DNA of 64,000 nt from Candidatus Omnitrophota bacterium (GCA_041650295.1 JBAZLM010000001.1:128318-192317), one strand, 5' to 3'; numbered from the stretch's first letter, positions 34,982 to 64,000 are shown. Notes: generated by a model not told the origin, from the letters alone. Made by a program: numbers and translations.

Positions 34982-35062
34982 GCGCGGGTGGTGGAATGGC
35001 AGACACGCAAGCATGAGGGGCTTGTGCCGAAAGGCTTGGGGGTTCAACTCCCCCCTCGCGCA
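34982..35062 (+). tRNA. tRNA-Leu (anticodon GAG), long variable arm
   Basis: Acceptor GCGCGGG/CTCGCGC+A; D-arm GTGGAATGGCAGAC; anticodon stem CAAGC/GCTTG with loop ATGAGGG; long variable arm; T-arm GGGGG-TTCAACT-CCCCC. Confidence 0.7.
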
Positions 35063-35316: not shown

Positions 35317-35391
35317 GGCCCCATCGTCTAGCCTGGCCTAGGACGTCAGCTTCTCAGGCTGTAAACACCGGTTCAAATCCGGTTGGGGCTA
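35317..35391 (+). tRNA. tRNA-Glu (anticodon CUC)
   Basis: Acceptor GGCCCCA/TGGGGCT+A (G1·U72); D-arm GTCT-AGCCTGGCCTA-GGAC (Glu-like); anticodon loop TTCTCAG; T-arm ACCGG-TTCAAAT-CCGGT; 75 nt. Confidence 0.65.
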
Positions 35392-53787: not shown

Positions 53788-53805
53788 TTTTTAAATATTT
53801 GCTTA

Positions 53806-53846
53806 AAAGGGATGTTTCATCTAAATGAAACATCCCTTTTTTTGTT
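53806..53846 (+). terminator. rho-independent terminator after tadC
   Basis: AAAGGGATGTTTCAT-ctaa-ATGAAACATCCCTTT followed by T7. Confidence 0.7.
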
Positions 53847-54112: not shown

Positions 54113-54163
54113 TGAACTGAAGTTATTATTGAACTGAAGTTATTATTGAACTGAAGTTATTAT
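54113..54163. repeat. 3 × 17-bp tandem repeat (TGAACTGAAGTTATTAT)
   Basis: Three perfect tandem copies seen in sequence. Confidence 0.8.
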
Positions 54164-54685
54164 TGTCTTGGCATATTACATTTATAGCTGTGCTTATTAG
54201 AATGACCTTATTTACGTTTGCTGGACCTTCTGCCATAAGTATTATTACAGGTTAATATGATTCATCTGTGCCGTTCAAAAGATAAGAATTTTACTTATAA
54301 AGGAAGTAATAGTGAGCATTCTTCTAAGTTAAAATAGTAAATTTATTTTTTGTTTAACTAAGAAATGTTGCAATAATAAAAGTAATTGTCCAGTCTAAAG
54401 TGTAGATATTTAATTGTCCAGTCTATTTCTAAAATTTGTCCAATCAGGTTTCAATGGTTTTAAGCTTGATAATCAAGAAAATATGATATAAATAGTTTAA
54501 TGGATTAAAAAATTTACTTTGAATTTTAGTTATGTTGGAGCTTATTTTGATGTTCTTTAGGATTTGTAATTAAGCTGCTGAAGTATTTTAAGGCACTAAG
54601 CAATTAAATTTTTGGGTAAGATTGGGGTCAAAGTTTGATAGTTTTTGCTAGAAAGAAAGCGTTACCAAAATAACCGTTTTTCTAC

Positions 54686-54714
54686 TTGACAGCGTCTATC
54701 TGAGGTGTTATATT
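54686..54714 (+). promoter_or_regulatory. σ70-like promoter TTGACA-17 nt-TATATT
   Basis: TTGACA at 54686-91 and TATATT at 54709-14; about 20 nt upstream of the putative riboswitch. Confidence 0.45.
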
Positions 54715-54734
54715 TGAGTGTAAGTTGAAAAGGT

Positions 54735-54860
54735 CTTAAAAGTAAACTTAGAGTAATCTAAGGACACAAAGCCACGGATCCTTAATCCAAAAAGCAGTCT
54801 CAAGGATAGCCGGGTTGCCAGGCCGACGAGAGTTGGAGTAATGACAACTCGGTTTTATTG
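54735..54860 (+). promoter_or_regulatory. candidate c-di-GMP-I (GEMM) riboswitch with intrinsic-terminator expression platform
   Basis: GNRA-capped hairpin CUUAGA-GUAA-UCUAAG (54747-62), immediately followed by GGACACAAAGCC (cf. GEMM GGACGCAAAGCC). P3-like hairpin GGAUCCUU...AAGGAUAGCC, then AGCCGGGUUGCC (cf. GEMM AGCGGGGUUACCG). Terminator GAGUUG-gaguaauga-CAACUC+GGUUUUAUUG (54830-58). Confidence 0.45.
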
Positions 54861-54992
54861 TAGAGTTTCACAAATGATTTAGAAAAGTATTTAATAAGAA
54901 ACCTGATGCCCATGAAAAGAGAAATAAAAAATCTAAAAGATTTTGGGGTAAGGGGAAAAATTTATTTTTTATTTATTAGTAATAGGTAAAAG

Positions 54993-57900
54993 ATGAACAA
55001 CAAAAAGCACCAGACAGAAGATCGGATTAAGCAACCGAAGCGAGAATTCAAGTCAAGTTTTAAGACCTGGATTCGCGTGGTTGCTTTTGTTATTTCTGCT
55101 ATCTTTTTACCAGAGCAAGTTGCTCAAGCCGTAGAATACGATTGGCGGGTAATCTGGAATAAGCCTGCAGCCGGAAGCATTGCCTCTACTTCTTTGAAGA
55201 ACTTAGCTAGCATTGATACCGCTTTAGCCATTCGCAATATTTTGAAGGATATCGCCAATAAGCCAATCACAGCGATTAAGGTTTCGTCCAATCTGACCAT
55301 TAATTTGGACAAACCCTTAAAAATGTCCAATCAAAAAATAGAAGAAATTACTGAATGGTTGAAGGGTAAGCCTTGCGGAACTAAAGCCCTTTATGATTAT
55401 CTAAATTATGCAGGAATTCAAGCTCCTGAAGGCGACATTGCTATTATGGCTTTGACTGTGGACATTCTTAATGATGTAGTCAAGCCGGAAGGTAATCCTA
55501 CGGTTATCAAAAATTCTCTTTATGCCCTTTCTCAAGCGGCCAAATTCTTTGGAAGCGACCTTTATCCAGTAAAAATTCAAAGCAATCGAGAATTAGGCAG
55601 CTTAACTCCTTTTATTGCACATTTAAATTATGACCACTTTATTTTGGTTACTCGGGTTACTGAAGATAAGGTTTACTATAGCAATGAGCATAAAGAAGAG
55701 TTTTTCCCAAAAGATACATTTGCAACCAAATTTACTGGTTATGCCTTAACTAATATTTTACCGGCAGATTTAAAGACTTTAGAACCTGCTGAAAGCAAAA
55801 AAGTTCTTGGTGCTTGGTCCTCATCAACTTCTTCTAGTGGTAGATCTAGCTCTGGCTATAGATCTAGCTCAGGTTATAGTTCTCGATCTAGTTATACTAA
55901 TAACTGGCGTTCGGGAACTTCTTATTACTCTCGACAATCTTTTGTTAGTCATTATAGGCCACAAATAGCAGCTGCAATGTCTAAGGTTCTTGGGGGCAGT
56001 AAGCAGGCTATGAGAGTTGCTTTAGTAGCTGCTATTCCTGTTGTGGCTATTTCTGCTATTCCTGGCGGTAAATTTTTAGGTACTTTTACTAAAAGACTTG
56101 CTTTTAATCTTATTGTGGGGGAAGCTACTTTGCAACTCAGTAGTTACATAAACACTGATAAATTTGTTGGATTTAAAACTAAGGGCGATTTAGGTATGCA
56201 TGCTTTGATATTAGCGTCATCCGCTTTATCAGCTGGGGCGACTAATATTTCTACAAAATTTTCAAGTGTTAAACTTTCTGGTCCTTTTAATCCTCCTGCC
56301 ATCTCTAATCGTATGGGCGTAATGAGCAGATCTGCCCGGATGTTAAATTTTGGCAATTCTGTTGTTAGGACTCTGCCTAATTTTGCTAGCAAGGTGTCTT
56401 ATTACGGATTAACCGGAGCCAATACATTTTTAGTTACTGGCACTGCGTTAGAAGGACTAGGTGGTCAGGGACCGAACCTACAATCGATGAGCAAGAATTA
56501 TCTTACAGGTTTAGCGGTTGGCTCAGCTAGCGGTGCGGCTTCTTATCTACTTTCTCCTAATTCAGTTGGAATAGCAAAATTGTCCAAAGCATCCTCTACT
56601 GTAACAGGGATTGTCCCCAATAAAATTACAACTGTTTCCGGTAAATTAGGCGAATTTGTTACGCGTGGGAAACTTGCCTCTGAAATAGGGAAAGAATTAA
56701 TTGGCGTGGGAGTTGTCTCTAGTGCTTCCGGATTAATAAGCGCTGGAGGTACCCTAACTTATAACGCAATCAAAGGAAATAAGTTAAGAGAAAATTTATT
56801 GCGCAATACTTTAGGCGCAGCTGCAGCACCTCTTTTAATTTATGGTTCAGCAAAAATCATACCTGTAGTGAAATCAATTACCACTCCTGCTTCTAGTAAA
56901 ATTGCAGAGAGCTTTAACAATAGTAAGTTTCTTCCTAAGCTGGGTAAAGTTGTTTCTTTTGGTCAAGCTAATTCTCCGGTAATATTAAGGCTGGCGGGTT
57001 CTTCTGCTATTACTGGAAGTATGGGGTTTGTAGGCACTTTAGGTTATAATTTGGTTAATAGAAAAGATAGAAAATGGAATGAAGATTTACTTTATAATAC
57101 TTTAGGGGCAGCAGCGATTCCTTTATTGATTTATGGCTCAAGCAAAGCAATGTCTTTAAACAAAAGACTCTTTTCTCCTGTGAATTTAAAAATTACTATC
57201 CCCAATATAATTACTTTAACAGCTATTGACACTAAAGCGGCTTACGCTTTAGATAGAAAATATTATGAAGGCAGTCTGGCAAAAGAAAGTTATGGTTCTG
57301 GGCCTTTTGTTGGAGTGTTTAAAAATGTGCTATTGGCTCCAGGTAGACAGATTTTAAGTATTAAATCTGATTTTGCTCCAGTAGCACAACATCTAACTAA
57401 TGTAGAAGCTAATGTCTTCAATGATTGGGCGGCGGATAAAGGGCTGGTAGGTGCAAGTTTAGCCTATACGGCAGGATTTTCAAGAAGTTGGCTTAATGTA
57501 ACTTCTTTAGCTACACCGATTAGATCTATTGCTCGTTTAGATCAAACCGTTAAAGACTTTTATACTTTGAGTGCGAATTTAAGCAATGCTGCTAATAATG
57601 ATAAGGCTACAAAAGCAGATAATATTAGATTAGTTGATGCCGCTTATTTAGTCGGTAACGTTATGGGATCTTATACTGCATTTAAAGGAATTGGCAGCGG
57701 TTTAACTAAGCCCGCCAATCTTACTAAACCAGCAGAGCATTTAAAATTTAGTACAAATGTTTTAAATAACGTTGGAGGCATATTTAATACCAGTGCTACT
57801 ACAGTTATTGCTAACGCATCGATAGGTGCGATGTTGCCCTTAATGGGACAAAAAAATGCCGTAGGCGTTTTAAGCTATACTGAATTGTTTAATAGTTTGA

Positions 57901-60900
57901 AAAGTTTAGCTTATAATACTGATACTATTGCTAGAAGCTCCTTTGCTGTTTCTACGATTTTTAAGGGTTTAGGAGCTTTGAATAATCCTAAATTAACTAA
58001 AGCGGTAGTAATAGGAAGTGGGAGCAGTTTTGCGCTTGGAGGAGCAGCAGTAGCAGTTGCAACTAATGCAAAAAATAAAACTACTGATCAAAAGAAAATA
58101 GCTAATTGGAATAAAGTTTCTAAAATTGGTACAGGAGTTATGGCGGTTAGTGCAGTAATTTTAGCGTCACAGTTTGTTAGGGGTGTAGACGCTGTATCAG
58201 CAAAAGCAAAACCGACAACATTAGTTGGTGTAGGCGCAGGAGGTGTTGCGGGGGGCGCCGGTATGTATTGGGGGGCAAAGAAAATAGGAGAAAAAACAAC
58301 TTGGGGGCAAAAACATCAGGGTATAGTTAATGCTACGATGAATGCTGGGCTGTTCATAGCCGGAATGGGTGGATTATTATTAACTCGAGGTCTTTCTAAA
58401 CCACTAGTTAATAAGATTCAGGTTTGGGATAAGGGGATTTCACAAACTCAGCGTGTCCAAAAAATTTACAGACTCCCAGTATCTACTGAAATTAAAACCG
58501 CGTTTGCAAGCAAAGGTTTAGGGGCTTTAAAATTAATTAATTCTGGAGTTACTACAGCTGGTAGTGCCTGGTCAATAGGCACGGCATGGTATGGATTTAA
58601 TCGGGGACTATTTACTCCTGCTGTTGAATATTTAAGTTTTGTCTTAGGGGATCGATCTGAAAAAGATTCTAGAGCATGGAAAGGTTATGCATCGTTCTCG
58701 ACCCCAAGATACTGGGCGGAGCGTAAATATGTAGGTGCTAGTGGATTGTTAATCGGTTCAGTGTATAAAACTATAAAATTAGCCTCTAAGCATTATGGGA
58801 CATTAGATAAAAGTAGCGGTGCTTGGAATGGATTAAAAGAAGCGTTCAAAGAGCAAAAAATAAAGACTTGGGATAAATATGTTAATTTTGGTAATAAGTG
58901 GGCAGGAAAAATAACTCCTAAAATAGCTAAGTTTGGTGGTTATGCTTCTGGGGTTACTGGAATTGGTCTCCAGACTCTTGCGCATACTTTTGGCACTTTA
59001 TTTATGGTAATGGCTCCGCTTGCTCCTGTGTTAGAGGGGGCAAGCTTTTTGTCAGATAGATTCCTACAATCTCAATATAATAGTCGATTAGAGAATTGGT
59101 TTCATAATTTTACTACAGGTGCTTTTTCCAATGATGATACCCTTTTAAGATGGAAAGAATTAGGTTTTATTAGAGGAAAAGATGCAAAAGACGTGTCTTT
59201 GGTAGCTAAAACAAGATTCGATAAAATCGGTTCTTCTTTACAAATGTTTGCTACTGGGGTGAGTGCTGGACTTTTTGGAGTAGAACCCGTACAAATACTT
59301 GATGTAGATGGAAGCCTAAGGACAGTACAAATGCCGAAGGCCATTAGTTTTAAGGATAAGGATAGAACTTATATTAATCCTGATGGCGATAAAATAGTTT
59401 TAAAACAAGGTGCTGTTTCAATGTTGACCTCTTGGCTTAGTCCTGTTACTAAAGATGGTAAGCTTAAAATTAAGACAGAGGAAGGTGGTTTTGTTAAGCG
59501 TACATTAAAGACATTTGATAACCAAGCTTTAATGTTTGGCGCGACTTTAGCTATTTTAGCTCCTCTGGCCGGTCCAGTTCTTACTAACATTAAATCATTT
59601 AATTTAGGACAAGGTCTGAGGGCTTTTCAATACGGAGCTAGTCAAACCTTTGGTTTAAAAGGACTGTCAGATTGGGCTAAACGCGGGCGCACAAAAGTTG
59701 GATCAAAATTAAAGAATCTTTTTACTAATAAGGTGCACATGGCATTTCAAGGAAGCATAGAAGAAATTAATGAACAAAATGTGCAACTTTTTACTTCTGT
59801 TCCGGTAAGTTTAGTTGGTCCTATAGTTACACTCTTTGGTGTAAGTCCAACAATGGCACTTGCTATTCAAGGATTTGTTGAAGAAATTACTCAAGAGTTG
59901 GTTGGTGATATTGACGGAGCAGGCGGTGCTGTTAGAAGTACCGCGACAAGTTTTTGGGCTTCCTGGGGAAATAATAATCCGGTAGTTAGCAGGATAACTT
60001 ATGTTGATGCAAAAAAAGATGCAAAACCTTTAATAGACGTAGCTAAATTAAATGCTCAGAATCCAGAATCTTTAGAAGCTTTGGCTGGTTTAAAAGAAGG
60101 CGATAGGGTTACCTTAACTCATGAAGACGGATTTGTGCGAGATTTTGTGGTCGATGCAAATTGGGGTAATTTTATGAATACTCGCGCGCAAGCCGTAAAT
60201 TATCAAAGAGGCTTAAATAGTGGGGCAGTCACTGTTCCAACTTTGGTAGCGGCGATGCGTAGTTCGGATTCTATTAAGAAGAATGCTGCGAGTATTGCTT
60301 TAGCAAGTAATTTGTCGGCTGACCAAGCGATACAGATTATGCGTCCGGCAGATTATGAACATGTGTTGACTTTTAAGGCACCCGGTAGTAGTGCTCCAAT
60401 AAGCGTTCCAGCTAGCGACCTTATGGACCAGGTGGTCGAAAGAATGGCTTTTGAGCAAGATTTTGCTAGCAAGGTAGAAAGTAATTTTAAGAGCTTGGAT
60501 GTAACTACCCCGAAAGCTGTGACATTAAAGACAAATAATTTAGAGATAATTGCTTTTTCTGGCGATCAAACTAGCAGTAAGGTTACTAGTGATTATATAC
60601 AAGAAGTTGGTTATGTTCCGATGGGTAATTTTAAATATGGTAATAAAAATGTAAGGGTGAACGTAGTAGAAGGTATGCATCAAGCGGTGAGCAAAACGAT
60701 GGGTAATGCTCAGGCTGGATTAGGTGCGGGCGGTATATCAGCAGATGGTGTTTATGATATTTTTGTTGATGCTGCAGAGTATGCCGCAGAGCTAAAGAAA
60801 AATCCTGGTGCAAAAAATAATCCGTTAAGTTTAAATACAGTAAGTCATGAATTTAAGGAGTTGGTTAGTTTTGAACGAATAGTAAGAGGATATCAAAAAA

Positions 60901-63900
60901 GTTTAGGCATACAATCAAGTGGAATTGCTATTGAGCGCTTACAACAAGCCTCTGGCATAAATGAAAAAGCTGGTGCGGAGGTTGATTTAATTGCTGCTTC
61001 AGATGGAAATCAGATTAAAGCTCCAAACGCGGCTCCCGTTGCTAAACAACCGTTGTTTATTCGCGTGATGCAGAATGCGCACAGCAATGCTCCAGAGATT
61101 GCTCCAGCGGTTTCTGGCTCGGTAACTCCAAGCAATATTTTACCTATTACTAGAGCGGTTAATAAAGGCGTGGTAGTGGATTTAATTGCTGCTTCAGATG
61201 GAAATCAAGTTAAAGTTCCAGCTGCGGTTACTCCGGTTGCCAAACAAAAAGAGATCAATGATGCCGCTTTAGAGATGCGTTTAGCTGCGGCTAGAGCTTT
61301 GCAGACTAATGATCAAGCAGATTTTGATGAGGCATCAGGATTAAAATATAAAGTTAGTAAAATGCAGGAAGATGAAATTTATCGACAAGGTTTAGCTAAG
61401 ATGGGTGTTGAGCTTAAAGATAGAATAAACTTTTTCTATAATCGTCGTCAGATGGCTACCGCAAAAGCTAAATATGTTGAAGATAATAAGAAAGCATATG
61501 GGGCTGATTTTATTAAAAAGAAAGACGCTTTAAATGAAAGAGTTGCAACAATTAAGGCAATGACGCCAACTCAATATAAAGATTATCGAGCAGATATTAA
61601 AACTCGATTAGAAGGGCTTAGTCAGAAAAAAGACTCAACGGTAGAAATGCCTACTATGGATGAGATAGAAGATCTTAAATATACAGCTCAAGCTGCCAGA
61701 GTTAAATCATTAGAAAAGCAAATTAAGGAAACAGAATCAGAATTTAAAAAATTTAAGACTGGTAAGATTAAGTCTAATGAAATTCGCGAAGATATTATTA
61801 ATAAAGTATCAGAAAAGAAAAGATTAACCAGAGACTTTATAAGTGATTTGCTTAATGCGGGCAAAGTTAATTTAGGGACTGGAGAAATTATTGGTTATCC
61901 ATTTACACTTAATGATGCGCTAAATTATGAGATTTCAAAAAGTGTTTCAAAAAGTGGTAAGAATATTATTTATAATTTAGTTGATGGACCCGAAAATATA
62001 AAAATTTCAGTGCCTAAGGTAATTGCAGAAATTGATGCAACAAAAGATGCAACTATAGCCAAGCGATCTGAATTAGGTCCGGTGACCGAAACTGGCCCGC
62101 CTTCAGCTTTAGAAAATGCTAAAACAGTTTTAGTTAAAGCGCAAGCCGAAGCGGTAAGATTGGCTGCCATTTCTGATGGCAAGCAAGAAGACCTAGTATA
62201 TAGGAAAGGTTTATTAAAAGCAGCTAAGCAAACCAATGATCCTGCGAAAATTAATCGAGCTCAGAATGCTTATGATGCTACAAAAATTAAAGCTGATGTT
62301 GCGATTGACGATTGGCAAGGAAATCAATTAATATTATTTAGCGCGCAAGAAAAAGTTGATGCATTAGAAGCTCAAGCTACCGTAATTGCCGCCCCTCTTT
62401 CTACAGAAGTAAATAATATCCCACAAACAGAAGTAACCCAGGCTGCACAGCTAAATTCTAATAAAGAATTACTTAAAGAATTAGGAATCAAAGAAGGAAC
62501 CCGCACTTATAATCGTTTATTAAATTCTGACAACGAATTACTCTATGAGAAAATAAAATTCTTAACGGATAAAACTCAAGTTAACCTAGGTACTCGTAAT
62601 GGCAATGTACCAATAAGTTTATTACGTTATAGCTTAAAAACTTTGCAAGATCGCGCTACGAAGTTAAATGAATTTGGTTTGGCTCTTAATACTACTACGG
62701 TAAGATTAAAAACTAATGAAGAGATTCAAGCGTATAAAGATAGAGCTTTGCCAAAAACTGAAATATCGGAAGTTTCTGCTAAGCCGGTAACGGTTGCAAC
62801 TGCTCCAACTTTCACTAAATTATCGTTCCCAGGGACAACCCCGCAGGCATCACAAGCAGCTCCTACAGAAGAAGCTCAATCAGTTTCAGTGAAGTCAGAA
62901 GGCCAAAAAGCTTTAGATAGAGCAAACAAGATTTTAGGCATAGAAGATTCGGAACAAGATAAATCAGAGGGCCAGAAAGCTTTAGATAGAGCAGATAGAG
63001 CTTTAGGTGTTAGCTCAAGGGGGCAGGAAGCTCAGCCGGCGGAAACAAAAGCTCCAGCCACACCCGCAACTGTAACAGCTCCTGCGGCTCAAGCTCCAAC
63101 ATTAATTCCAGAAAAAGCAGCTCTTCTTCAACAGGTAGCTCCAACTTCCACTAAATTATCATTTCCAGAAACACCATCAACATCAGCTAAACCGGTGGAA
63201 GCAAAAGCTCCGGCACAGGCGCAAGCAGCTCCTGTCGAAGCTAAAGATGCCTCTTTTGTTTATCCTTCTGTAAAAGAAATCTTTCCTGATTCAGAATCAG
63301 CAACTACGCAAGAAGATCCTCAAGCTGCTATTGCTGCTAAAAAACAACAGGCTGCTGCTGAGGCCTCTAAAGCTGCAGAAGAAGAATTTTATAGAGTTAT
63401 AAATAAAGGCATTGAGCAAGAACAAAAGATTGCTGCCGAGCAAGAAGCAGCTAAATCTGCAACAGCTCCTGTGGCTCCTGCGGCTCAACCATCTGTTGAG
63501 AAGAATGTCGTAGAAGAAGCCCAACCCGCTAAGCAATTGTCACAAAAAGCTCTTAGCAGAATCGAAAAGATTAATAAAGACCTTGAGAAACTAAAGAAGA
63601 CAAGAAATGAGTTTGCCGCCAAAGCAACAGCAGCTAAAGAATATAATTCCGTGAAAGAATTTTTAAAAGCTCCCCTTTTAGCACAGAATGCATATAACAA
63701 TTATCAAGAGGCTCAAATCAAGAAAGGCAAGAGTGGTGAAATACGAGATCAGGCGTATTTAGATAAAAGAATTGCAATACTCCATAAAGATGCGAATTTC
63801 TTACAAAGATTATTTGCCACTAAAATAAATTATGATAAAAAAGCTGAAAAAATTGCCAGACAAATACGAGCCTTAGAGGGTGAGCAAAGAGCATTAGAAA

Positions 63901-64000
63901 ATAGCGGTAGTATAGTTAAATCTCCTAACTGGACAAATCAAGCCTGGGCGCAATTAAAGGCAACTTTTTACGTTGCGTTAGTTTCGGAGAACCCTAAAGT
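54993..64000 (+). CDS. giant membrane-anchored protein, >3000 aa, 3' end beyond window: N-terminal TM anchor, papain/peptidase-C39-like domain, Ser-rich linker, repetitive G/A/S/T-rich core, coiled-coil repeat-containing tail
   Basis: Continuous + strand reading frame from ATG 54993 to the window edge, verified by hand at several points; it is absent from the ORF track because it has no in-window stop. TM segment TWIRVVAFVISAIFL. C39-like motifs KGKPCGTKALYDYLNYAG and IAHLNYDHFILVTRVTEDKVYY. Linker SSSTSSSGRSSSGYRSSSGYSSRSSY. Internal repeats LL(R/Y)NTLGAAA(A/I)PLLIYGS(A/S)K, VDLIAASDGNQ(I/V)K.P...PVAKQ and SEGQKALDRA. Confidence 0.65.
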   Translation, partial: MNNKKHQTEDRIKQPKREFKSSFKTWIRVVAFVISAIFLPEQVAQAVEYDWRVIWNKPAAGSIASTSLKNLASIDTALAIRNILKDIANKPITAIKVSSNLTINLDKPLKMSNQKIEEITEWLKGKPCGTKALYDYLNYAGIQAPEGDIAIMALTVDILNDVVKPEGNPTVIKNSLYALSQAAKFFGSDLYPVKIQSNRELGSLTPFIAHLNYDHFILVTRVTEDKVYYSNEHKEEFFPKDTFATKFTGYALTNILPADLKTLEPAESKKVLGAWSSSTSSSGRSSSGYRSSSGYSSRSSYTNNWRSGTSYYSRQSFVSHYRPQIAAAMSKVLGGSKQAMRVALVAAIPVVAISAIPGGKFLGTFTKRLAFNLIVGEATLQLSSYINTDKFVGFKTKGDLGMHALILASSALSAGATNISTKFSSVKLSGPFNPPAISNRMGVMSRSARMLNFGNSVVRTLPNFASKVSYYGLTGANTFLVTGTALEGLGGQGPNLQSMSKNYLTGLAVGSASGAASYLLSPNSVGIAKLSKASSTVTGIVPNKITTVSGKLGEFVTRGKLASEIGKELIGVGVVSSASGLISAGGTLTYNAIKGNKLRENLLRNTLGAAAAPLLIYGSAKIIPVVKSITTPASSKIAESFNNSKFLPKLGKVVSFGQANSPVILRLAGSSAITGSMGFVGTLGYNLVNRKDRKWNEDLLYNTLGAAAIPLLIYGSSKAMSLNKRLFSPVNLKITIPNIITLTAIDTKAAYALDRKYYEGSLAKESYGSGPFVGVFKNVLLAPGRQILSIKSDFAPVAQHLTNVEANVFNDWAADKGLVGASLAYTAGFSRSWLNVTSLATPIRSIARLDQTVKDFYTLSANLSNAANNDKATKADNIRLVDAAYLVGNVMGSYTAFKGIGSGLTKPANLTKPAEHLKFSTNVLNNVGGIFNTSATTVIANASIGAMLPLMGQKNAVGVLSYTELFNSLKSLAYNTDTIARSSFAVSTIFKGLGALNNPKLTKAVVIGSGSSFALGGAAVAVATNAKNKTTDQKKIANWNKVSKIGTGVMAVSAVILASQFVRGVDAVSAKAKPTTLVGVGAGGVAGGAGMYWGAKKIGEKTTWGQKHQGIVNATMNAGLFIAGMGGLLLTRGLSKPLVNKIQVWDKGISQTQRVQKIYRLPVSTEIKTAFASKGLGALKLINSGVTTAGSAWSIGTAWYGFNRGLFTPAVEYLSFVLGDRSEKDSRAWKGYASFSTPRYWAERKYVGASGLLIGSVYKTIKLASKHYGTLDKSSGAWNGLKEAFKEQKIKTWDKYVNFGNKWAGKITPKIAKFGGYASGVTGIGLQTLAHTFGTLFMVMAPLAPVLEGASFLSDRFLQSQYNSRLENWFHNFTTGAFSNDDTLLRWKELGFIRGKDAKDVSLVAKTRFDKIGSSLQMFATGVSAGLFGVEPVQILDVDGSLRTVQMPKAISFKDKDRTYINPDGDKIVLKQGAVSMLTSWLSPVTKDGKLKIKTEEGGFVKRTLKTFDNQALMFGATLAILAPLAGPVLTNIKSFNLGQGLRAFQYGASQTFGLKGLSDWAKRGRTKVGSKLKNLFTNKVHMAFQGSIEEINEQNVQLFTSVPVSLVGPIVTLFGVSPTMALAIQGFVEEITQELVGDIDGAGGAVRSTATSFWASWGNNNPVVSRITYVDAKKDAKPLIDVAKLNAQNPESLEALAGLKEGDRVTLTHEDGFVRDFVVDANWGNFMNTRAQAVNYQRGLNSGAVTVPTLVAAMRSSDSIKKNAASIALASNLSADQAIQIMRPADYEHVLTFKAPGSSAPISVPASDLMDQVVERMAFEQDFASKVESNFKSLDVTTPKAVTLKTNNLEIIAFSGDQTSSKVTSDYIQEVGYVPMGNFKYGNKNVRVNVVEGMHQAVSKTMGNAQAGLGAGGISADGVYDIFVDAAEYAAELKKNPGAKNNPLSLNTVSHEFKELVSFERIVRGYQKSLGIQSSGIAIERLQQASGINEKAGAEVDLIAASDGNQIKAPNAAPVAKQPLFIRVMQNAHSNAPEIAPAVSGSVTPSNILPITRAVNKGVVVDLIAASDGNQVKVPAAVTPVAKQKEINDAALEMRLAAARALQTNDQADFDEASGLKYKVSKMQEDEIYRQGLAKMGVELKDRINFFYNRRQMATAKAKYVEDNKKAYGADFIKKKDALNERVATIKAMTPTQYKDYRADIKTRLEGLSQKKDSTVEMPTMDEIEDLKYTAQAARVKSLEKQIKETESEFKKFKTGKIKSNEIREDIINKVSEKKRLTRDFISDLLNAGKVNLGTGEIIGYPFTLNDALNYEISKSVSKSGKNIIYNLVDGPENIKISVPKVIAEIDATKDATIAKRSELGPVTETGPPSALENAKTVLVKAQAEAVRLAAISDGKQEDLVYRKGLLKAAKQTNDPAKINRAQNAYDATKIKADVAIDDWQGNQLILFSAQEKVDALEAQATVIAAPLSTEVNNIPQTEVTQAAQLNSNKELLKELGIKEGTRTYNRLLNSDNELLYEKIKFLTDKTQVNLGTRNGNVPISLLRYSLKTLQDRATKLNEFGLALNTTTVRLKTNEEIQAYKDRALPKTEISEVSAKPVTVATAPTFTKLSFPGTTPQASQAAPTEEAQSVSVKSEGQKALDRANKILGIEDSEQDKSEGQKALDRADRALGVSSRGQEAQPAETKAPATPATVTAPAAQAPTLIPEKAALLQQVAPTSTKLSFPETPSTSAKPVEAKAPAQAQAAPVEAKDASFVYPSVKEIFPDSESATTQEDPQAAIAAKKQQAAAEASKAAEEEFYRVINKGIEQEQKIAAEQEAAKSATAPVAPAAQPSVEKNVVEEAQPAKQLSQKALSRIEKINKDLEKLKKTRNEFAAKATAAKEYNSVKEFLKAPLLAQNAYNNYQEAQIKKGKSGEIRDQAYLDKRIAILHKDANFLQRLFATKINYDKKAEKIARQIRALEGEQRALENSGSIVKSPNWTNQAWAQLKATFYVALVSENPK

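Follow-up and report, generated by a model that had tools for sequence, protein, structure and literature searches.

The 5' leader of a giant gene of Candidatus Omnitrophota carries an element that, judged by its sequence and by its relatives, is a genuine riboswitch of the GEMM-I (c-di-GMP-I) class, and that probably acts as a transcription-terminating ON switch, i.e. binding of a cyclic dinucleotide would allow RNA polymerase to pass an intrinsic terminator built in part from the aptamer itself. The element lies in a stretch of 64,000 nt (GCA_041650295.1 JBAZLM010000001.1:128318-192317; hereafter the window), from whose first letter all positions are counted. Fold, ligand class and mechanism are already known, and what is new is the location in front of an Omnitrophota giant gene; the searchable papers on these genes make no mention of a riboswitch, and a literature search on Omnitrophota and c-di-GMP returned nothing relevant.

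The giant genes of Omnitrophota rank with the longest known genes, and published cases comprise tens of thousands of codons. To the question of how their expression is triggered in these unculturable organisms, the riboswitch offers a concrete and testable answer. It is situated within the first 140 nt of the predicted transcript, it is conserved down to 36% protein identity, and it would let a second messenger decide, before the coding region is reached, whether the long transcript is made, which measures at least 9 kb here and at least 45 kb in a relative.

Identity and fold of the aptamer

A scan of the entire window against Rfam at gathering thresholds gave three matches, namely two tRNAs and one c-di-GMP-I riboswitch. 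The latter (RF01051, 54731-54822, + strand) spans model positions 1-87 of 87 with E = 4e-9 for a search of all 64 kb, and its 59.5 bits are well above the gathering score of 35, so that the covariance-model check set by a preliminary description of this DNA came out positive; c-di-GMP-II (RF01786) had no match in the same scan. The match ends 170 nt before the ATG at 54993, with a conserved promoter 35 nt upstream and a terminator directly downstream. The elements concerned are:

54686-54714, + strand: sigma-70-type promoter, -35 TTGACA (54686-54691), 17-nt spacer, -10 TATATT (54709-54714)
54731-54824, + strand: GEMM-I aptamer including P1, which pairs GGUCU (54732-54736) with AGGCC (54820-54824)
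54747-54762, + strand: first hairpin, CUUAGA-GUAA-UCUAAG, a 6-bp stem with a GNRA tetraloop (GUAA), adjoined by GGACACAAAGCC
54770-54816, + strand: second hairpin, 13 bp with an A bulge and an AG bulge, ending in AGCCGGGUUGCC

The sigma70-like promoter of the preliminary description is thus in place and agrees with the consensus at 11 of 12 positions; its -10 element is extended (TG-n-TATATT), its core is invariant in eight orthologues, the same promoter is found in the related locus L001, and transcription would, as inferred from the promoter sequence, start near 54721. Likewise, the first hairpin with its GNRA loop abutting GGACACAAAGCC and the second hairpin followed by AGCCGGGUUGCC were both located where they had been described.

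In isolation, the aptamer has the family consensus as its minimum-free-energy fold, P1 included, and this fold is borne out by an alignment of 35 distinct related sequences (alignment A2). Here, 97.7% of the cells in the aptamer helices are paired and eight pairs have changed on both sides, values matched by none of 500 shuffles, and the pairing falls to 26-50% when the partners are shifted by one to three columns. The first hairpin is paired in 99.5% of cells, with changes on both sides in five of its six pairs and with invariant G, A and A in the GUAA loop; the second is paired in 96.5% of cells, and its 3' strand also supplies the 5' arm of the terminator. P1 covaries as well, being GGUCU/AGGCC in the window, GGUGC/GUACC in L001 and GGUAC/GUAUC in L005.

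The element resembles Vc2 from Vibrio cholerae, the archetype of RF01051, in having P1 and two hairpins, a GNRA loop on the first of them, the same conserved blocks, and the ligand-contacting residues A47 and C92. It differs from Vc2 in having A instead of G at position 20, GUAA as loop, a longer P3 apex and, as platform, an intrinsic terminator that overlaps the aptamer; moreover, the canonical 11-nt receptor sequence (CUAAG/UAUG) was not seen in the second hairpin. We also considered the c-di-GMP-I-GGC variant (RF03167), which is the best match for the orthologues (59.8-64.2 bits; gathering score 59). However, the window reaches only 56.6 bits with this model, i.e. it stays below the threshold, and the variant consensus GACGCGAAG has G at position 47, where the window and every relative have A (CACAAAGCC or CGCAAAGCC). 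As both the G47 and a sufficient score are missing, membership of the window in RF03167 was rejected.

Conservation with the giant gene

The gene behind the riboswitch is known from the window only in its 5' part:

54993-64000, + strand: 5' part of the giant gene, the frame being open up to the end of the window (>3002 codons by translation)

The N-terminus of the encoded protein comprises a transmembrane segment and a Peptidase_C39 domain (Pfam PF03412, E = 2e-5). Homologues in the databases are all fragments at contig ends, and the full size is available solely from L130, where a relative with 64% identity is called as two proteins of 480 aa and 14,858 aa. Same-strand genes upstream encode a Rotamase_2 isomerase, RcpC and a secretin, further a ParA-like/T2SSE ATPase, a TadE/G-like protein and two T2SSF (TadB/C) proteins. 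This arrangement corresponds to the published layout of Omnitrophota giant genes, which have an N-terminal C39 domain and a conserved secretion/pilus locus upstream (bioRxiv 10.1101/2023.11.21.568195).

Related genome loci were retrieved with the N-terminal 350 aa of the giant protein as query. Seven of these eight loci contain the aptamer, about 255 nt before the ATG, and the eighth has no upstream DNA. A search of metagenomes with a DNA pattern in which position 20 was left free gave 119 contigs, so that the pattern matches total 126 (the window, six genome loci and the 119 contigs). About 38 of them, including about 30 metagenome contigs, belong to the giant-gene lineage, and in all lineage matches with enough downstream DNA the coding sequence of the giant-gene N-terminus (65-82% identity) begins 245-261 nt behind the pattern. 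The aptamer is also present in six of six distant orthologues that were fetched via the protein (36-64% aa identity), even in one whose upstream neighbourhood is not Tad. The window and all related loci are from Candidatus Omnitrophota, the relatives being MAGs. Since the aptamer is kept in all orthologues with upstream sequence, whether or not Tad genes precede it, the riboswitch is tied to the gene itself. Thus the same element with compensatory changes, by which the preliminary description could be judged, stands before every orthologous giant gene with upstream sequence, and its central proposal of a GEMM-I class riboswitch with a terminator-type platform in front of the giant gene is supported by covariance model and orthologues alike.

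One part of that proposal does not hold, i.e. that the Tad neighbourhood would be under control of the riboswitch. The Tad genes lie upstream and are closed by a strong terminator of their own:

53805-53840: Tad-operon intrinsic terminator, 16-bp stem followed by TTTGTTTTTG, right behind the second T2SSF gene

The giant-gene promoter follows about 900 nt beyond this terminator. As the operon is located upstream and separately terminated, the riboswitch governs the giant gene and not the Tad genes.

The terminator platform

The region behind the aptamer offers alternative hairpins:

54808-54854, + strand: composite intrinsic terminator, in which AGCCGGGUUG (54808-54817) pairs with CAACUCGGUU (54845-54854) and the inner hairpin is enclosed
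54823-54836, + strand: inner hairpin CCGAC-GAGA-GUUGG with GNRA loop, the apex of the terminator, overlapping the P1 3' strand by 2 nt
54830-54850, + strand: small hairpin of 6 bp, GAGUUG (54830-54835) with CAACUC (54845-54850), in the sub-lineage of the window only
54853-54859, + strand: U-tract UUUUAUU, conserved in both leader alignments, with GGUUUUAUU after CAACUC

CAACUC, the 3' arm, can pair with either of two 5' segments, GAGUUG (54830-54835) or the 3' strand of the aptamer. Pairing with the latter results in the composite terminator, which has a folding energy of -21.3 kcal/mol (z = -3.66; none of 200 shuffles folds equally well), abuts UUUUAUU and constitutes the minimum-free-energy fold of the full leader. 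Its long helix is paired in 91% of cells, with U-A replaced by C-G in L007 and L091 and G.U by G-C in six sequences; the same U-to-C changes produce A.C mismatches in the small hairpin. The helix is not complete throughout, as the pair C84-G126 is missing in 21 of the 35 sequences and C85-G125 also in seven. The inner hairpin (-6.2 kcal/mol, z = -3.0) is paired in 94% of cells, two of its pairs have changed on both sides, and its loop remains of GNRA type even where it varies (GAAA in L085, GGGA in L091).

The small hairpin (-7.2 kcal/mol, z = -1.8) behaves differently. Its covariation is no better than that of shuffles, and it is broken in L037 (two mismatches), L085, L091 and L075; in L085, the exchange G104A turns the loop GAGA into GAAA, keeping the GNRA motif and breaking the closing pair of the small hairpin. 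In the orthologues L128, L131, L132, L133, L044 and L091 a GAGUUG-type segment able to form a small hairpin is absent, and the sole hairpin at the U-tract uses the aptamer 3' strand (-17 to -33 kcal/mol). The 3' arm of L131 differs in sequence (AAUUCGGCU), yet stays complementary to the aptamer 3' strand. Given the lack of covariation and its absence in distant orthologues, the small hairpin was rejected as the conserved terminator and retained as a rival within the sub-lineage. The canonical terminator of the preliminary description is therefore only partly upheld: GAGUUG/CAACUC followed by GGUUUUAUU is present, but the conserved stem is the one that CAACUCGG(UU) forms with the aptamer 3' strand. 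The position given there, about 130 nt before the ATG of the giant gene, agrees with the 134 nt between U-tract and ATG 54993.

With a stable predicted hairpin followed by a U-tract, the segment 54808-54854 is, in the folding model, an intrinsic (Rho-independent) terminator. A simple terminator scanner misses it, because the 'loop' of this terminator is a structured region of 27 nt.

Switch logic

As the terminator is built from the aptamer 3' strand, aptamer and terminator are mutually exclusive, which makes an ON switch the most likely logic. Based on our findings we propose that transcription would begin near 54721 from the conserved sigma-70 promoter and that the aptamer (54731-54824) would then fold, P1 and the two hairpins surrounding a pocket made up of position 20, A47 and C92. 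If no ligand is present, CAACUCGGUU (54845-54854) would invade from the junction end and pair with the aptamer 3' strand AGCCGGGUUG (54808-54817), and the invaded strand together with the inner GNRA hairpin would give a terminator of about -21 kcal/mol before UUUUAUU, resulting in a transcript of about 135 nt. If ligand is bound, the aptamer 3' strand would be locked, no terminator would form, and RNA polymerase would proceed into the giant gene.

This ON reading, which we regard as probable, is favoured by the unambiguous outgroups, the covariation, the far greater stability of the long hairpin, and by the fact that c-di-GMP usually controls adhesion factors positively. Mutual exclusion of aptamer and terminator is the mark of the ON switch of Geobacter pilM, whereas both coexist in Cd1, an OFF switch (PMC9262584). 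Furthermore, pilZ genes are found downstream of Omnitrophota giant genes and GGDEF domains inside many of them, rendering an ON switch biologically coherent (bioRxiv 10.1101/2023.11.21.568195). The riboswitch links second-messenger sensing at the RNA level to these PilZ genes and GGDEF domains, which had been noted at the protein level, and a positive feedback loop may be possible should c-di-GMP be made by the giant protein. In the 64-kb window itself, a motif-level scan (regex) found no GGDEF, EAL, HD-GYP or PilZ motif in any ORF.

The folding energies allow a second reading in the sub-lineage of the window. When the aptamer is forced to form, the best fold consists of aptamer, P1 and the small hairpin and, relative to the terminator fold, lies only 1.8 kcal/mol higher in the window and 0-6 kcal/mol higher in the sub-lineage (0-1.5 kcal/mol in L002, L004, L012 and L086). 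Termination in the ligand-bound state via the small hairpin could thus occur in this sub-lineage, as far as these models go. The corresponding scheme is that of Cd1, i.e. an OFF switch by which c-di-GMP shuts the giant gene off: ligand-stabilised P1 would take the C residues 54823-54824 from the inner hairpin CCGAC/GUUGG, which would serve as antiterminator, and GAGUUG, thereby freed, would pair with CAACUC to form the small terminator. It is in accord with this scheme that the P1 3' strand and the inner hairpin share 2 nt, that GAC/GUU extends the small hairpin in the aptamer-forced fold, that this hairpin passes a minimal terminator consensus scan, i.e. is terminator-like, in L001 and is strengthened in L090 (7 bp, 4-nt loop), and that the strands fit the published P-A-T-H scheme for OFF switches (PMC9262584). 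Nevertheless, we consider an OFF switch unlikely, if conceivable, as it relies on a hairpin that does not covary, that is disrupted in the four sequences mentioned above and that is absent from all distant orthologues, which carry the aptamer-overlapping terminator alone. It also leaves unexplained the 8-10 nt of complementarity between the aptamer 3' strand and CAACUCGGUU and the compensatory changes therein, and the stronger long terminator would still form in the ligand-free state.

Control of translation by sequestration of the ribosome-binding site, instead of transcription termination, is very improbable. RNAalifold does predict a helix between a U-rich tract and the AGGU...AUG region, but this helix falls in low-complexity sequence, its pairs are nearly all A-U or G.U and invariant, with essentially no covariation, the ribosome-binding site is about 160 nt away from the aptamer, and a conserved hairpin with U-tract is located directly behind the latter.

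Returning to the ON switch, a close counterpart is the Geobacter GEMM-Ib riboswitch of pilM, which has the same transcriptional ON architecture with mutually exclusive aptamer and terminator and is likewise found at surface/pilus-related genes (PMC9262584), although the terminator reaches into the P3 3' strand here and mainly involves P1 there. Cd1, from the flgB operon of Clostridioides difficile, also has a GEMM-I aptamer followed by an intrinsic terminator (PMC9262584); however, it is an OFF switch in which the two coexist, whereas the conserved terminator here takes nucleotides from the aptamer, and only the small hairpin of the window sub-lineage would admit a reading like that of Cd1. 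A different RNA provides a further parallel in mode. The c-di-GMP-II riboswitches upstream of type IV pilin/adhesin genes of C. difficile (RF01786) have an unrelated fold, and there, too, c-di-GMP turns the gene on by antitermination.

Ligand pocket and position 20

Three residues of Vc2 belong to the ligand pocket:

54741, + strand: equivalent of Vc2 position 20, which contacts G-alpha of the ligand; A here, G in the family consensus and in most orthologues
54768, + strand: equivalent of A47, which intercalates between the ligand bases; A, invariant in alignment A2
54818, + strand: equivalent of C92, which forms a Watson-Crick pair with G-beta of the ligand; invariant within GCC in 35 of 35 sequences

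Of the two guanines of c-di-GMP, one is read by G20 of Vc2 and the other is paired to C92, with A47 stacked in between (PMC6140456). By this signature, G20/A47/C92, the lineage as a whole is predicted to sense c-di-GMP. The window deviates at one of the three positions: where relatives have AAAG-G-UAAAC it reads AAAA-G-UAAAC, so that position 20 is A. Hence the Vc2 block GGCAAAC to which the preliminary description had pointed is present, but in the form A-GUAAAC, with the ligand-contacting G20 replaced by A. As a consequence, c-di-GMP is not assured as exclusive ligand of the window copy, and of the proposed c-di-GMP riboswitch the family and the signature of the lineage stand, whereas the exclusive ligand does not.

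Position 20 is G in 119 and A in 7 of the 126 pattern matches, the variation being confined to purines. Within the giant-gene lineage A20 occurs in the window, L012, L026, L090 and L122, i.e. in 5 of about 33 distinct sequences, and G20 in the other 28 of 33 and in every distant orthologue. A neighbour-joining tree of the leaders shows the A20 copies scattered, and the nearest neighbours of each are G20 riboswitches that control the same gene. Since A20 recurs in four other independent contigs it is not a one-off error, and an assembly error is unlikely. Outside the close giant-gene sub-lineage, A20 was observed in two further aptamers, L029, which belongs to another lineage, and L075, a deep-branching relative whose contig stops before any downstream gene. 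The other approximately 80 matches, which are unrelated GEMM-I sequences, all have G20.

An A at position 20 is the feature of cGAMP riboswitches (GEMM-Ib); the G20A mutant of Vc2 binds cGAMP, which the wild type rejects, and this mutant as well as several natural A20 RNAs bind both ligands, c-di-GMP being accommodated through protonated A20 (PMC6140456). By analogy, the window copy may be bispecific, accepting c-di-GMP as well as 3',3'-cGAMP. One could go further and take the window and the other A20 copies for sensors of GEMM-Ib type whose physiological ligand is 3',3'-cGAMP and not c-di-GMP, as in Geobacter pilM/Gs1761, which has A at the equivalent of G20 (PMC6140456). The exchange is indeed the defining change of cGAMP riboswitches, the one by which Vc2 gains cGAMP binding (PMC6140456), and it recurs in four other independent contigs of the lineage. 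We nonetheless hold this quite improbable, as G20A and several natural A20 RNAs keep c-di-GMP binding (PMC6140456) and A20, though necessary for selectivity, may not be sufficient. In contrast to Geobacter GEMM-Ib, A20 is a minority allele here, present in 5 of about 33 distinct sequences of the lineage, the other orthologues of this gene having G20, and the closest relatives of every A20 copy carry G20 and control that gene. Moreover, there is no known cGAMP synthase here, a motif-level scan of the 64-kb window revealed neither a GGDEF nor a CD-NTase motif, the PilZ/GGDEF context at the protein level points toward c-di-GMP (bioRxiv 10.1101/2023.11.21.568195), and we found nothing to indicate cGAMP signalling in Omnitrophota.

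The preferred reading is thus a c-di-GMP sensor with a possibly bispecific copy in the window, and the scatter of A20 within it invites the speculation that the sensor is re-tuned adaptively by toggling between G and A. Orthologous riboswitches of one and the same giant gene would then be divided, by at least five separate changes, into G20 forms that respond to c-di-GMP only and A20 forms that respond also or instead to 3',3'-cGAMP, or to c-di-GMP with a shifted threshold. We regard this as rather doubtful. If it were adaptive, different second-messenger cues would govern giant proteins in closely related strains, or those of paralogous genes within a single cell, and the lineage would present a natural switch of riboswitch specificity at the strain level as well as a first hint of cGAMP signalling in Omnitrophota. 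Two giant-gene riboswitches, L026 with A20 and L083 with G20, were found in the same metagenome sample (Ga0172381) and could be from different strains or from paralogous giant genes within one genome. In any case, the lineage constitutes a natural series, with G20 and A20 aptamers and with terminators that have or lack the competing small hairpin, and is thus useful for studying how specificity and logic of a riboswitch drift.

Other elements of the leader and the intergenic region

Along the leader, the orthologues share the promoter core, aptamer and platform and, in addition, a second conserved hairpin and a G-box, the latter two being:

54866-54901, + strand: second conserved leader hairpin downstream of the terminator, CUUGCUAAAAGAUUUUAAAAAGAUUUUAGUAAG in orthologues, weaker in the window
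54943-54957, + strand: G-box UUGGGGUAAGGGGAA, about 35 nt before the ATG, invariant in the eight orthologues

RNAalifold finds three pairs with changes on both sides in the leader hairpin. The G-box UUGGGGUAAGGGGAA also occurs in L128 and L129 (48-54% protein identity); no conserved pairing partner was found for it, and a role as Shine-Dalgarno sequence was rejected as its distance to the ATG is too great. When the 1.2-kb intergenic region was scanned for a further RNA family, matches at chance level alone were obtained (E > 0.4).

The surroundings of the unit show several further features. Two tRNA genes (34982-35062 and 35317-35391, + strand; Rfam scan) lie a short way upstream of the Rotamase/RcpC/secretin pilus locus. 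L130 (2574-3278) and L129 (637-1362) each have an IS200/IS605-type Y1 transposase gene in the gap that separates Tad genes and riboswitch, i.e. this gap is a landing site of mobile elements in both loci, where the riboswitch-gene unit is intact. In the window, the non-coding gap between Tad operon and giant-gene promoter contains three copies of a perfect 17-bp tandem repeat, GAACTGAAGTTATTATT (54114-54164), which is not conserved in the aligned orthologues.

Two elements are situated upstream of the giant-gene promoter. A block, AAGAAAGCGTTACCAAAA, at 54653-54670, directly upstream of the -35 hexamer, is nearly invariant across orthologues and could be an UP element or an activator site. Further upstream, about 250-300 nt from the promoter, TTGTCCA occurs in three direct copies (54386-54442) within AATTGTCCAGTCTA, AATTGTCCAGTCTA and ATTTGTCCAATCA, spaced by 28 and 22 nt. 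The motif has one copy elsewhere on the + strand of the 64 kb, and the three copies, which are conserved in L001, L005 and L006, look like putative transcription-factor sites acting on the giant-gene promoter.
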